The notes beneath the pieces were generated by a model that saw nothing but the letters and a program-made list of their open reading frames with translations, searched no databases and was not told the DNA's origin. From assembly GCA_964016885.1 (NCBI GenBank), contig OZ024763.1, positions 27,528,001 through 27,592,000 of the forward strand: a DNA stretch of 64,000 bases, given 5' to 3'. The first letter of the stretch is position 1. Each line of letters starts with the position of its first letter. This document shows positions 15,272 through 51,380 of this stretch, piece by piece. The position numbers were made by a program, and so were the translations under genes. Origin of the DNA: Eledone cirrhosa. Its lineage: Eukaryota.

Positions 15272-15357
15272 AATAAAGAAAGTGTGGTAAGGTCTCAGGT
15301 GGAACATAACGCACCAGAGTACTCGAAACTTAAGGGGTTATAGGAAAAATGTCTCCT
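15272..15357 (-). mobile_element. PLE-type tail fragment in (TA)n, related to 50557 and 32737
   Basis: gtggtaagg...caggtgga.cataacgcacca.agtactc matches 50568-50610. Confidence 0.7.
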
Positions 15358-15493
15358 ATATATATATATATATATATATATATATATATATACTAAACCA
15401 TGTTGCATGAAATGACTTGTTCAGTCAAAGTATACCATATATGGTCAGAGCTAATATTTCAATATTAATGCTTTTTTTTCTTTTTTTTTCCAG

Positions 15494-15569
15494 AAATACA
15501 ATGTTGCGGAACCTCATCAATTCGTGTCACAAGATGTCTGGAGCGACGAAGATACTACTTAAAATCCAG
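15494..15569 (+). other. Candidate 76 nt internal exon of an unidentified host transcript
   Basis: Acceptor ttttttttcttttttttttccag and donor CAG|gtaag. Two frames are open (NTMLRNLINSCHKMSGATKILLKIQ; IQCCGTSSIRVTRCLERRRYYLKS) but neither is recognised. Confidence 0.45.
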
Positions 15570-15655
15570 GTAAGAAGTTTTCAATAAATGTATACATGTA
15601 AGAAAATTCTTTTTAACATTCTGGAAAAAATGTCACATAGAAACACGATGTTTAA

Positions 15656-16008
15656 ACTTTTCAATGCCGTAGACGAGATAACTCGTCCTAACATATTTGA
15701 ACTCTGTTCAAACAGTTAATAAATTTAAAGTAGGGAGATCTCCTAGGGCTAATGTCACCAGATGTCTCCACTGCCAAGGGCACGACCGCAAACCTGTCGA
15801 AGAGCGACCGGTACTTGGAGAAATTATGAACTCGTTTCCAACAGTTCATAACTTCAAAGCTAGATGAGGTTACTAGTTTATTGATGTGATGTTTGTCAAT
15901 CATTCAGATATGAGTTGTTAATAAATGTTTGTTTAAAAAATAGTCATTTTACCGAAAAAAAACCTGGCACAGAAACTGTAGCTGTGTAAAATATCGGCAG
16001 TCAAAAGG
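15656..16008. mobile_element. piggyBac-like MITE with TTAA target duplication
   Basis: TTAA-acttttcaatgccg ... cggcagtcaaaagg-TTAA form imperfect TIRs with TTAA on both sides. Confidence 0.6.
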
Positions 16009-16103
16009 TTAAACGAATATTACTTGATGTTAATTTACAGGAAATCGTATGAAACTATGATTTTAAAAATGTATGTATATTTAATATGTGATAACAGTTT
16101 AGA

Positions 16104-17625
16104 AGCTCGGAGATCAGAGACTTGTTCCAGGTAGATCCAGTACTTCTCGAAATTCAGAGATCACAGCTCCAATATTACAGACATGTGGTTAGAATGTCTC
16201 TGGAAAGAATCGCTGGACAGATTTGTAGCTCAGAGATCAGAGAGTCACTCCAGGTTGAGCTGCTAATTCTCCTACTTGAGAGATCACAGCTCTGATACTA
16301 TGGACATGTGGTTAGAATGTCTCTGGAAAGAATCGCTGGACAGATTTGTAGCTCAGAGATCAGAGAGTCACTCCAGGTTGAGCTGCTAATTCTCCTACTT
16401 GAGAGATCACAGCTCTGATACTATGGACATGTGGTTAGAATGTCTCTGGAAAGAATCGCTGGACAGATTTGTAGCTCAGAGATCAGAGAGTCACTCCAGG
16501 TTGAGCTGCTAATTCTCCTACTTGAGAGATCACAGCTCTGATACTATGGACATGTGGTTAGAATGTCTCTGGAAAGAATCGCTGGACAGATTTGTAGCTC
16601 AGAGATCAGAGAGTCACTCCAGGTTGAGCTGCTAATTCTCCTACTTGAGAGATCACAGCTCTGATACTATGGACATGGGGTTAGAATGTCTCGGGTTAGA
16701 ATCGCTGAACAGATTTGTAGCTCAGAGATCAGAGAGTCACTCCAGGTTGAGCTGCTAATTCTCCTACTTGAGAGATCACAGCTCTGATACTATGGACATG
16801 TGGTTAGAATGTCTCAGGAAAGAATCACTGGACAGATTTGTAGCTCAGAGATCAGAGAGTCACTCCAGGTAGAGCTGCCACTTCTCCTAATTGAGAGATC
16901 ACAGCTCTGATACTATGGACATGTGGTTATAATGTCTCTGGAAAGAATCGCTGGACAGATTTGTAGCTCAGAGATCAGAGAGTCACTCCATGTAGAGCCG
17001 CTACTTCTCCGAATTGAGAGATCACAGCTCTGATACTGTGGGTATGTGGTTATAATGTCTCGGGAAAGAATCACTGGACAGATTTGTAGCTCAGAGATCA
17101 GAGAGTCACTCCATGTAGAGCCGCTACTTCTCCGAATTGAGAGATCACAGCTCTACTACTGTGGGTATGTGGTTAGAATGTCTCGGGAAAGAATCACTGG
17201 ACAGATTTGTAGCTCAGAGATCAGAGAGTCACTCCATGTAGAGCCGCTACTTCTCCGAATTGAGAGATCACAGCTCTACTACTGTGGGTATGTGGTTAGA
17301 ATGTCTCGGGAAAGAATCACTGGACAGATTTGTAGCTCAGAGATCAGAGAGTCACTCCAGGTAGAGCTGCTACTTCTCCTACTTGAGAGATCACAGCTCT
17401 GATACTATCGACATGTGGTTAGAATGTCTCAGGAAAGAATCGCTGGACAGATTTGTAGCTCAGAGATCAGGGAGTCACTCCAGGTAGAGCTGCTACTTCT
17501 CTGAATAGAGAGATCACAGCTCTGACACTATGGGCATGTGGTTAGAATGTCACAGGAAAGAATCAGCCTGCAGGAGACCCAGGGGTAAACCAACCCTAAG
17601 CAAGATGGTTGGGTGAAGAAGAAGA
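16104..17625 (+). repeat. 123 bp (41-codon) tandem array x12 derived from an RTE LINE ORF2 segment, ending in a deleted 3' end and (GAA)n
   Basis: Units start at 16104 + n*123 up to 17457 and translate SSEIRESLHVEPLLLRIERSQL(Y/*)Y(Y/C)G(H/Y)VVRMS.ERI.GQIC. The array continues into aggagacccagggg, shared with 25232-25459. Confidence 0.9.
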
Positions 17626-17635
17626 AATAAGATTG

Positions 17636-17809
17636 ATTGTCGAGTTGTCGATGGTAAAACCGGCTCCCCTAACGACGCCTTGTCTTCTGAGGAGGGTAGG
17701 TGGAACCCCAGGAGTACAACAATGGGAAAAGAGTCAGGACCCCGACGACTGAATTTCGGCCGTTCCGAATCGGCCGCAGCTCAGCCGTCGGGGTCCTGAC
17801 ATTTTCCTA
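17636..17809 (-). mobile_element. PLE-type hairpin-plus-tail related to the 50557 family
   Basis: Inverted repeat gtcaggaccccgacg / cgtcggggtcctgac; the tail retains aggtggaac and gagtac; (TA)n on the right. Confidence 0.6.
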
Positions 17810-49026: not shown

Positions 49027-49397
49027 AAACGTTTGAATATGTATAATAAAGCCAAAACAATGCAGGTATGGACATAGAATAAAGAATGCAAATGCAAAAG
49101 ATATTGTTGACAAGTAGTCTTTTACCTTAGATTTATTTAAATGTCCTTAATTTTCGAGATAATATCTCTTCTTCTGAAGAAGAGATATTATCTCGAAAAT
49201 TAAGGACATTTAAGATATTATCTAAAAAATTAAGGACATTTAAATAAATCTAAGGTAAAAGACTAATTGTCAATAATATCTTTTGCATTTGCATTCTTTA
49301 TTCTATGTCTATACCTGCATTGTTTTGGCTTTATTATACATATTCAAACGTTTATACCTCATGACACAATGCTTCAAGTGAACTATAACCTCCTCCA
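49027..49397 (+). mobile_element. PLE-type hairpin (~148 bp arms) plus tail, with a minimal hammerhead at the apex
   Basis: Palindrome centred at 49175; ctt-CTGAAGA-a-gaga(tatta)tctc-GAAAATTA-agg at 49171-49205. A third copy of the distal arm is at 48604-48706. Confidence 0.75.
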
Positions 49398-49464
49398 TAT
49401 ATATATATATATATATGTATGAACAAAGAAGCGACAAATTTATTTACTTATTTATTACTGATAA

Positions 49465-49875
49465 GGATGTGATGTCTTTGAGAAAAACCGAGTGAAGCAT
49501 GCTGTTTTAAAGCGTTCACTTCGTAAGCAGGATTTAAGTGCAATGCCTGCAAAAATTCAGCAAGATTTGAGGTGCAATGTATGTCACCGATTTCTTCTAA
49601 CAAGAGCTGATTTTGTTACCCATCTGAAATCACACGAGCCGGGGTGAAATTGAGTGAACTGTGAGATGGTTATACCACCGCACACTCCACTGCATATTTA
49701 CAGTGAGTGCAGCTTAATTTACAAGCCAGCAAGTGGTCTGACCTGACATGGTAAATTGCATGAAGACACACACCAGTTGGTATTGGTGGGAGACAGACAG
49801 TTCAAGTGCCACATCTGTGAACGTACCTACAAACAAAAGCCGGACTGCAAGGTCGCATGCGTGCACATGATCTTT
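49465..49875 (+). pseudogene. RTE-type LINE C-terminus with C2H2 zinc fingers
   Basis: GCDVFEKNRVKHAVLKRSLRK...CNVCHRFLLTRADFVTHLKSHE...FKCHICERTYK(fs)KAGLQGRMRAH; same architecture as 14788. Confidence 0.7.
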
Positions 49876-50158
49876 CAGTCGTGCAATGGAGGGATGGTAC
49901 TCTTCTGACAAGAATTAACCATAAACACCCCCCCCCCCCCCCACACACACAGACACACACACATATATATATATATTTTATAAGTTTAAACTATATATAT
50001 CGCTATATATTTGGTATGCATCGATTAAACTTAAATTTAGTTTATCTATATATATATAAATGTATATATATATATAAATATAAATATATATACATACATA
50101 CGTATATATATATATATATATACATATATATATATATATATATATATATATATATATA

Positions 50159-50489
50159 TTTTGAGTTTATGTTGGTTGTATACCAACACCTCAGTATGCA
50201 GGCTGGAGCACTCGACGAAGTGCGCAGGTTGGTTTGGTTACTCCGGAGTAGTGTAAAATAAAGTTAAATAAAAGTCAAATGATTAAAATTTAGCTTCGTT
50301 TATTACTGCTATATATATTTCAGTGACAGCCATCTTTGGCTGTGACCTCTTCAGGCAGTTTGAATTAGTAATTACTAATTCAAACTGCCTGAAGAGGTCA
50401 CAGCCAAAGATGGCTGTCACTGAAATATATATAGCAGTAATAAACGAAGCTAAATTTTAATCATTTGACTTTTATTTAACTTTATTTTA
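50159..50489 (-). mobile_element. Second copy of the 30069 PLE end with shorter arms (~118 bp); hammerheads at 50305-50359 (-) and 50384-50438 (+)
   Basis: Same tail and same outer boundary as 30069-30620; apex ttagta-at-tactaa at about 50371. Confidence 0.85.
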
Positions 50490-50556
50490 TATATATATAT
50501 ATATATATATATATATATATATATATATATATATATATATATATATATATGTATAT

Positions 50557-50752
50557 AACGAAGGAAATGTGGTAAGGAACCAGGTGGACCATAACGCACC
50601 AAAGTACTCAATACTTAGGGTAGTAGAGTGGGTAATAGGAACGAGTAGGACCCCGACGGCTGAGCTCAAGCCGTTTCGACGGCTAATTCTGAGTCCAGAA
50701 TTAGCCGTCGAAACGGCTTGAGCTCAGGCGTCGGGGTCCTACTCGTTCCTAT
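50557..50752 (-). mobile_element. PLE-type tail plus hairpin holding the 3' half of a hammerhead with a long stem III
   Basis: Palindrome 50635-50752. The minus strand reads GAAACGGCT-tgagctc-AGCCGTC-gggg; CUGANGA is absent. Confidence 0.7.
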
Positions 50753-51018
50753 ATATATATATATATATATATATATATATATATATATATATATATATAT
50801 ATATATATATACTCTTTTACCTGTTCCAGCCATCCGGACAGGAGGCTGGGCTGGTGAAATTGCAACAAGATTCAACATAAACGAAGATCGATAAGTTGCA
50901 TAACGTCGAGTGCTTTTCTTAATATTACATCACGGTTGACTATACGAAATGACAAGTTCTATCCAGTGGTGAACCAACAAACTTAAATGCATATATATAT
51001 ATATATATATATATATAT

Positions 51019-51380
51019 CTAGGGAGTGTAACTTGGAGTTACTGCAGGTTCACCAGGGGGAGCACTCGATGTTTAGGTTCACTTCTGTGATGAGGTGTAG
51101 AGCTATACAGAGTGTAATATATTGAAAGGATAACAAGGACGATTGGTTACTCCTTCATTACATTTATTGGTAGGTGACGCACGTTTCGCCACTAATCAGC
51201 TCAAGGTTCGATCTGCATTGATCTTACCCGTTAACCATCTGAAATCGTCGAACTGCCGATTATTGAGTCGGGTAAGGTCGATGCAGATCGAACCTTGGGC
51301 TGATCAGTGGCGAAACGCGCGTCACCTACCAATAAATGTAATGAAGGAATAACCAATCGTCCTTGTTACCCTTTCAATAT
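51019..51380 (-). mobile_element. PLE-type tail plus inverted repeat (~110 bp arms) with a hammerhead 3' half
   Basis: Arms 51119-51230 and 51269-51380; GAAAC-gcgc-GTC at 51312-51323; the tail has gcactcga at 51062. Confidence 0.7.

Follow-up and report, generated by a model that had tools for sequence, protein, structure and literature searches.

Short fold-back elements inserted in (TA)n arrays of the Eledone cirrhosa genome carry the octamer YYGAGTRC in their 3′ tails, as first noted in a 64,000-nucleotide stretch (assembly GCA_964016885.1, contig OZ024763.1, positions 27,528,001 to 27,592,000 of the forward strand) that we refer to as the window. Genomic sequence and the end points of copies suggest that this octamer is one strand of a hairpin present twice in Penelope-like elements (PLEs) of the Hydra type, that copies of these elements end about 6 nt upstream of the hairpins, and that the two hairpins are likely RNA docking sites which position the reverse transcriptase (RT).

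The genome measures 3.0 Gb and the window is rich in (TA)n arrays, between which lie the fold-back elements, each consisting of two arms, one inverted and the other direct, plus an unpaired tail. The orientation that places the tail at the 3′ end is taken as the element sense and agrees with the coding sense in copies retaining an open reading frame (ORF). All elements were defined by their (TA)n flanks. The genome was sampled in 139 and 20 further stretches, each of 10 kb and spaced at fixed intervals (1.59 Mb), to which the flanks of loci were added. In the first set, which includes the window, the detector retained 78 of 110 candidates; from the second set it retained 13 of 17, and among the flanks of other loci 29 of 34. 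This gave a total of 120 elements in 35 families (designated f0 upwards), with 34 families (110 elements) having a member outside the window.

A covarying bulged hairpin

The tail sequences strongly support the octamer being the 3′ strand of a covarying bulged RNA stem rather than a linear signal. The hairpin has the form 5′-RCUC-(inner stem of 2-6 bp, loop of 3-100 nt)-UN-GAGY-RCU-3′ with a two-base bulge, and its 3′-strand consensus is UN-GAGY-RCU; YYGAGTRC covers those cases in which the closing pair is A-U (or G-U). A fold descriptor found a match in 17 of 34 tails, compared with 1.6 in shuffled sequences, 5 in the antisense and 3 in upstream sequence.

For the covariation analysis, both strands were picked by sequence and position only, to limit circularity. 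Both anchors were present in 19 of the 35 families which, together with six second hairpins and one further family, provided 26 units (one placed by hand). The inner three pairs were formed in 65 of 78 cases as opposed to 37.0 when the 3′ halves were permuted (maximum of 52 in 20,000 permutations), although the permutation result should not be read as a strict probability, the anchor rules having been written after part of the data had been seen and the families sharing ancestry. Alternative bulge sizes or registers formed only 22-31 of the 78 inner pairs. The first outer pair is A-U in 12 and G-C in 10 of the 26 units, the second pair is U-A in one family, and the first base of the bulge is U in 25 of 26 units while the second is variable. 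Sense-strand G-U pairs occur in f3, f9, f6, f16, f0, f1 and f28.

The post hoc rules and the shared ancestry also weigh against the stem itself, as do several other observations. Sixteen of the 35 families lack the anchors, and single-sequence folding is weak, with the full hairpin present in the minimum-free-energy structure in 7 of 11 cases and a z-score below −2 in only 2 of 11. Further, the terminal pair of f23 is an A-C mismatch in both hairpin copies, the bulge of f11 is 1 nt, and pairing is poor in the second hairpin of f13 and in the representatives of f17, f18 and f22. A weak stem, of which only about 15 nt are conserved, is as expected if it is stabilised by protein.

Two other interpretations of the motif were considered and dropped. 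Palindromic dimerisation through GAGY-RCUY was rejected, GAGC-A (a mismatch) being common, and a resemblance to the RNA polymerase III box B consensus was set aside, the conserved part being the paired strand. An Rfam scan returned 339 matches; the best 150 were all below the gathering score and mostly microsatellite-driven.

Enrichment and position of the motif

The proposed concentration of the motif in tails holds beyond chance. Of the 34 families represented outside the window, 8 have the exact octamer in their tails, while the controls gave 0 in the antisense, 0 in the pseudo-long terminal repeat (pLTR) just upstream and 0.16 in dinucleotide shuffles (maximum 1 of 300). When multi-copy (TA)n-flank clusters were counted with no filter for hairpins, the octamer read toward the array in 13 of the 162 and away from it in 4 (0.9 shuffled). 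These clusters were built with end-anchored links, which replaced an earlier chained clustering that had shown no excess (15 vs 10; shuffles 7.1, maximum 15) because most of the element families had been lumped into three giant clusters, which hid the signal. The 1103 single-copy (TA)n flanks show no directional excess (19 toward vs 21 away).

The earlier note had described the tails as unrelated, which is correct for the tail sequences but not for the encoded proteins, which are 33-54% identical. It had also placed the motif at a similar distance from the 3′ microsatellite junction. That constancy is not borne out, the distance ranging over 30-113 nt (SD 23) in 18 families. The real anchor is the tail start, the stem beginning about 6 nt past the end of the short arm.

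That the motif has no function, representing chance matches or decaying ancestral sequence among related families, is barely credible and already largely refuted by enrichment and covariation. The families do form one clade and the single-copy flanks lack directionality, but the compensatory pairing occurs within unalignable tails and the hairpin is both duplicated in each element and conserved in other phyla.

A second hairpin and the ends of copies

Full-length elements contain one copy of the hairpin just past the end of the pLTR and another just past the tail, 25-65 nt before the ATG. The second hairpin, which lies about 6 nt beyond the tail end and outside the inserted DNA, was seen in copies of f0, f3, f5, f13, f20 and f23 that are tandem or full-length. 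Genome searches with a pattern fixing only RCTC and GAGY found 4 copies of f28 running past the tail and 251 matches for f1, 100 of which were listed; in both families the U-N bulge and a C-G closing pair were recovered even though bulge and pairing had been left unconstrained.

Ends of copies mapped on tandem references fall in two clusters per family. Six families provide ten modal end intervals, all located 2-8 nt ahead of the stem, and an offset of −6 is the only one common to all; the long ends of f1 and f28, read from window junctions, are also consistent with this register. A TA-like patch of 2-4 nt overlaps all ten modal ends, giving microhomology of that length at each (null mean 1.0-1.8, P ~2e−5 under a conservative null), and TA-like patches further upstream are mostly unused as ends. 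End calls for f5 at reference positions 310-333 were excluded as artefacts of a TA-rich stretch in the loop of hairpin 2. In the contigs of run X1, which is possibly the window's own sample and whose results are not independent, common variants in hairpin 1 were restricted to the loop and the last flank base, and loose ends ran into (TA)n at both expected places (75 and 313 records). The earlier note is probably right in taking the motif for a cis signal, one linked to the end points of copies.

Every two-armed insertion in the 15 hairpin families (76 of 76) combines one long and one short arm, and the 111 one-armed ends divide into 61 long and 50 short. Tail length ranges from about 60 to 165 nt. 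One family, f6, apparently has three end positions: before hairpin 1, 147 nt later and 38 nt after that (L156:5688-6149; L035:1866-2054).

Some of these data run counter to a role of the hairpins in setting the ends. The second hairpin of f9 was not found, the genome pattern giving 3 unrelated-looking matches, and f3 and f13 have minor end clusters at other offsets. Three families that lack the hairpin show the long-plus-short combination too, in 13 of 13 insertions, so the coupling of the arms is independent of this hairpin.

A general binding or translation-control element, acting in cis RNA capture or start-codon feedback while nearby TA microhomology alone sets the ends, would agree with the location of hairpin 2, which is within the 5′ leader in all full-length families observed. 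We consider it highly unlikely, since the same −6 register is found at two hairpins in six families, TA-like patches further upstream mostly go unused, and the non-coding tandem units of f20 and f23 retain both hairpins.

Penelope-like elements with Hydra-clade protein signatures

Judged by their linked ORFs, the elements are 5′-truncated PLEs with Hydra-clade protein signatures, which bears out the earlier assignment of the tails to PLEs. ORFs could be linked through long copies for f1, f5, f10, f11, f2, f13, f0 and f3, and RWK/RWR, DKT, YRDD, CxCX5C and CxH were found in them; RWK, DKT, CxCX5C and CxxC/CxH are among the signatures given for the Hydra clade in the accessible text of PMC8557442. 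The N-terminal motif is RWK in f3 and f13 and RWR in f0 and f5, and DKG is changed to DKT in f0, f3, f5 and f13. The CxCX5C linker is present in f1, f2, f5 and f13, all four of which have CxH, and CxxC was read in f1, f2, f5 and f10. A single ORF encodes the RT followed C-terminally by a GIY-YIG endonuclease (frames of 830 codons in f5 and 719 in f13), with C-terminal endonuclease motifs in f1, f2, f5, f10 and f11; only the N-terminal 470-485 aa of f0 and f3 were seen. By inspection, the endonucleases of f1 and f2 have no CCHH, having one core Cys and lacking the second His, and that of f5 has two Cys but neither CCHH spacing nor the second His. A Pfam search of 8 ORFs matched only the two CCHH-type fragments and left the Hydra-type domains undetected, the class call thus resting on motifs. 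A hammerhead core was found for f3 in the window, while short f0 copies retain half of it only. The tandem spacing of f0 is about 3.5 kb, as against a Hydra-clade length below about 3 kb.

Every motif-bearing family that can be linked to a protein is Hydra-type, whereas f9, f17, f18, f27 and f28 have no linked ORF. The idea of a signal common to PLE families generally fails, the CCHH-type families f4, f8 and f26 having no such hairpin. Nor was one seen by eye in a check of Naiad tails, at the 3′ ends of three published octopus consensi, which may lack tails. A hairpin following the f4 tail in L131, considered as an extension to the CCHH type, is a nested copy of another family. Among six published Hydra consensi inspected by eye, the hairpin is clear in Hydra-2_Amil, Hydra-2_Ajap and Hydra-1_Ajap, which come from coral and sea cucumber, and partial in two; Hydra-1_Ajap has two copies before the ATG. 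It was not seen by eye in Hydra-1_Obim, an entry annotated as lacking the pLTR.

Family f5 was probably active recently, as indicated by many near-identical copies with the intact 830-codon frame, some in arrays spaced about 6.65 kb (C6:49.53-49.55 Mb, C1:183.74-183.76 Mb). Families f20 and f23 form non-coding tandem units with both hairpins, of about 430 bp (L133, L034) or about 590 bp (L044), and the f20 unit shows a hammerhead core. These retrozyme-like units are likely non-autonomous passengers.

Two further tail motifs were observed. ATGCTTSAAG(Y) is common to three short-tailed families (36-45 nt), two of them CCHH-linked, and ends 16-17 nt before the 3′ (TA)n junction (window 49369-49382 in f8, L149:1427-2848 and L014:2125-2618); it is a possible second clade-specific tail signal. 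A third motif, ACTCGTGT-N3-ACACCTC, is found in f7 and a single-copy family (L035:2068-3355; L235:4337-4671).

How the hairpins may act

We infer that the hairpins act as RNA from the absence of hairpin 2 from the inserted DNA and from the repeated occurrence of G-U pairs on the sense strand. Under the docking mechanism that we favour, an RT-endonuclease, possibly a dimer, would bind both hairpins on one tandem-derived RNA and cut (TA)n on both strands. Each DNA end would then anneal to the short TA-like patch next to a hairpin and prime cDNA there, and the two cDNAs would join head to head. The one-sided tail would be the RNA between the two start sites, its length given by the hairpin spacing. 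The most economical account of the strict long-plus-short pairing is a single RNA bound at both hairpins, for example by a dimer. We only tentatively put forward the full version, in which a dimeric RT on both hairpins of one RNA starts two cDNAs exactly 6 nt upstream, one per DNA end. The docking mechanism agrees with in vitro work on Poseidon_Ac, in which two internal RT start sites define the tail and RNA 3′ of the starts is required (PMC11167929, accessible text). A point against this mechanism is that the Poseidon starts are reported in the same text as being without target homology, in contrast to the microhomology found here.

The ends could instead be produced on DNA, by a GIY-YIG endonuclease that is guided by the hairpin in single-stranded DNA and cuts the TA-like patch about 6 nt upstream in a longer-than-unit cDNA or intermediate. 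The patch at both ends is similar to the enzyme's own target, the tail has been attributed to resolution by an endonuclease (PMC8557442), and the Penelope tail is reported as necessary for endonuclease recognition (cited in PMC11167929). However, the sense-strand G-U pairs would become A-C mismatches in the first cDNA strand, and in vitro work traced the ends of Poseidon to RT start sites (PMC11167929), making such a resolution unlikely.

Processing of the RNA 3′ end seems quite unlikely as well. Here the hairpin would cause the RNA to be cleaved or terminated about 6 nt upstream, leaving an ordinary 3′ end for the RT to start from. A structure 3′ of the cut site does have a precedent in the HDV-like ribozymes of non-LTR elements. 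Moreover, the ends of Poseidon_Ac RNA-seq reads coincide with the start sites (PMC11167929). Yet about 15 conserved nucleotides with loops of 3-100 nt are too little for a known ribozyme, and the strict long-plus-short pairing would demand two differently cut RNAs in every event.

Octamer sites and other features of the window

All 11 octamers reported in the window are present at their positions and in element sense. As sequences they stand, but they represent 8 rather than 11 independent families, 30119 and 50208 belonging to one family and 50604, 32787 and 15319 to another.

Octamer sites, minus strand: 30119-30126, 50208-50215, 51062-51069, 50604-50611 and 15319-15326
Octamer sites, plus strand: 32787, 48914, 29471 (CAGAGTGC), 29859 (TTGAGTTC), 20895 and 50906
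30068-30618, minus strand: f3 fold-back insertion in (TA)n, two inverted arms and a 99-nt tail (30068-30166)
30229-30265, minus strand, and 30520-30556, plus strand: f3 hammerhead cores; full-length f3 relatives carry an RWK/DKT ORF
30119-30160, minus strand: f3 bulged hairpin 1, ACUC...UC-GAGU-GC
50160-50487, minus strand: second f3 copy, hairpin at 50208-50249
50551-50749, minus strand: f0 fold-back insertion, hairpin at 50604-50629; full-length relatives known in the genome
32736-32840, plus strand: f0 one-armed copy, hairpin at 32769-32794
15273-15356, minus strand: f0 tail, diverged, with the octamer at 15319-15326; this copy has lost the 5′ strand of the stem
51019-51376, minus strand: f28 fold-back insertion, hairpin at 51062-51113
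48751-48962, plus strand: f9 fold-back insertion, hairpin at 48901-48921
29354-29533, plus strand: f1 fold-back insertion, hairpin at 29452-29478; Hydra-type ORF of f1 in L144
29597-29912, plus strand: f5 fold-back insertion, long-loop hairpin at 29787-29866; intact 830-codon frames in the family
20859-20965, plus strand: f18 tail-only copy, hairpin at 20871-20902
50860-50990, plus strand: tail related to f17, truncated, with the octamer at 50906-50913; the 5′ strand is absent here and present in the relative L147
3833-4055, minus strand: f10 fold-back insertion, GCUC/GAGC variant hairpin at 3869-3916, not in the earlier list
33582-34030, minus strand: f27 fold-back insertion, GCUC/GAGC variant hairpin at 33612-33639, not in the earlier list
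49028-49396, plus strand: f8 fold-back insertion, 44-nt tail without a hairpin (internal negative control); CCHH-type endonuclease in a relative

The window tails of f10 and f27 are GAGC variants and hence escaped the octamer pattern. The tail at 49356, singled out earlier as lacking a match, indeed has none and belongs to f8, a different PLE type. In the element at 52701-53095, the other tail so described (at about 52700), no hairpin was found and no second copy was present in the genome sample; its minus strand carries a hammerhead-like core, its fold-back point is occupied by a (TA)n array and its second arm measures 44 bp. Other octamer matches in the window (14747, 31135 and 28909) lie outside the tails of (TA)n elements. 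A 474-bp dispersed repeat (14315-14788 and 30705-31176, 96% identical), which is not a (TA)n tail element, has TCGAGTAC near one end, within an unbulged ACTCG/CGAGT hairpin.

At 48605-49128 the f9 element is nested in the (TA)n array at the centre of an f8 fold-back, with a second f8 copy neighbouring it. Hammerhead cores were also seen in decayed PLE ends at 20406-20429 and 32933-32972 (minus strand). The window further contains tandem arrays with units of about 123 bp (16094-17564) and about 109 bp (40476-44873), and non-LTR retrotransposon ORF fragments recognised by eye at 61438-63543 and 37709-38674, of two types: ORF1 with the start of an endonuclease, and a C-terminal nuclease-like domain.

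Significance and comparison with known systems

How PLEs recognise their RNA, and how the inverted arms and one-sided tail originate, is named as an open question in the accessible text of PMC8557442. The hairpin provides a defined covarying RNA element, an exact −6 register, a strict long-plus-short rule and young families with intact frames, which make this question directly testable in the existing in vitro format. It is also a simple diagnostic of Hydra-type ends for repeat annotation. If the proposed mechanism is true, the inverted arms and the one-sided tail found in all PLEs that bear an endonuclease would be accounted for by a two-site RNA launch pad, each clade would use its own tail signal, with AUGCUUSAAG in the short CCHH-type tails as a second candidate, and a portable 25-nt tag could direct any RNA into (TA)n.

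Short stems that fix where copying starts or stops are familiar from telomerase RNA, in its template-boundary element, and the RTs of PLEs are the sister group of telomerase RTs. In the epsilon element of hepatitis B virus, a bulged short stem likewise binds the RT and fixes the start or stop of copying (PMC10534774, accessible text). In the elements described here, priming would be by cut genomic DNA, and the likeness to both RNAs is one of analogy. Another parallel is the 3′ stem-loop of stringent LINEs such as eel UnaL2, likewise a small conserved hairpin near the template start that is required for mobilisation by the element's own RT (PMC1636434). The UnaL2 hairpin, as given in the accessible part of that paper, is single, lies upstream of the 3′ end and is copied, whereas here there are two, each downstream of a presumed start, and the second is never copied.

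Poseidon_Ac shows internal initiation with two starts, the tail between them and a need for the RNA 3′ of the starts, all of which would be shared, and its RT is predicted to be a dimer (Frangieh et al. 2024, PMC11167929). It is one element from another clade, and its starts lie in an AC-rich stem-loop within the ORF, with neither a conserved motif nor target homology reported in the accessible text; here a covarying twin hairpin lies in the leader 3′ of each end, with 2-4 nt of TA microhomology. Non-LTR retrozymes described as non-autonomous PLEs (bioRxiv 10.64898/2026.07.22.740005) resemble the non-coding tandem units of f20 and f23. The accessible text of that preprint mentions no tail, hairpin or stem-loop, while the f20 and f23 units keep both hairpins.

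The closest known counterparts are the Hydra-clade C-terminal endonuclease-bearing PLEs (Craig et al. 2021, PMC8557442), which share the protein signatures, the C-terminal GIY-YIG and the hammerheads, along with (TA)n targeting, the inverted 5′-truncated arm and the one-sided tail. Their tails are given as 30-40 nt and no tail hairpin is described in the accessible text, whereas the tails here measure about 60-165 nt and two hairpins would fix the ends. The hairpin was undescribed in the full-text literature searched, a search beyond whose reach lay figures and most subscription papers. The tail, the inverted arm, the hammerhead, internal initiation and the elements themselves are thus already known, and what appears to be new is the cis hairpin, akin to the stem-loops that position RTs in other systems.

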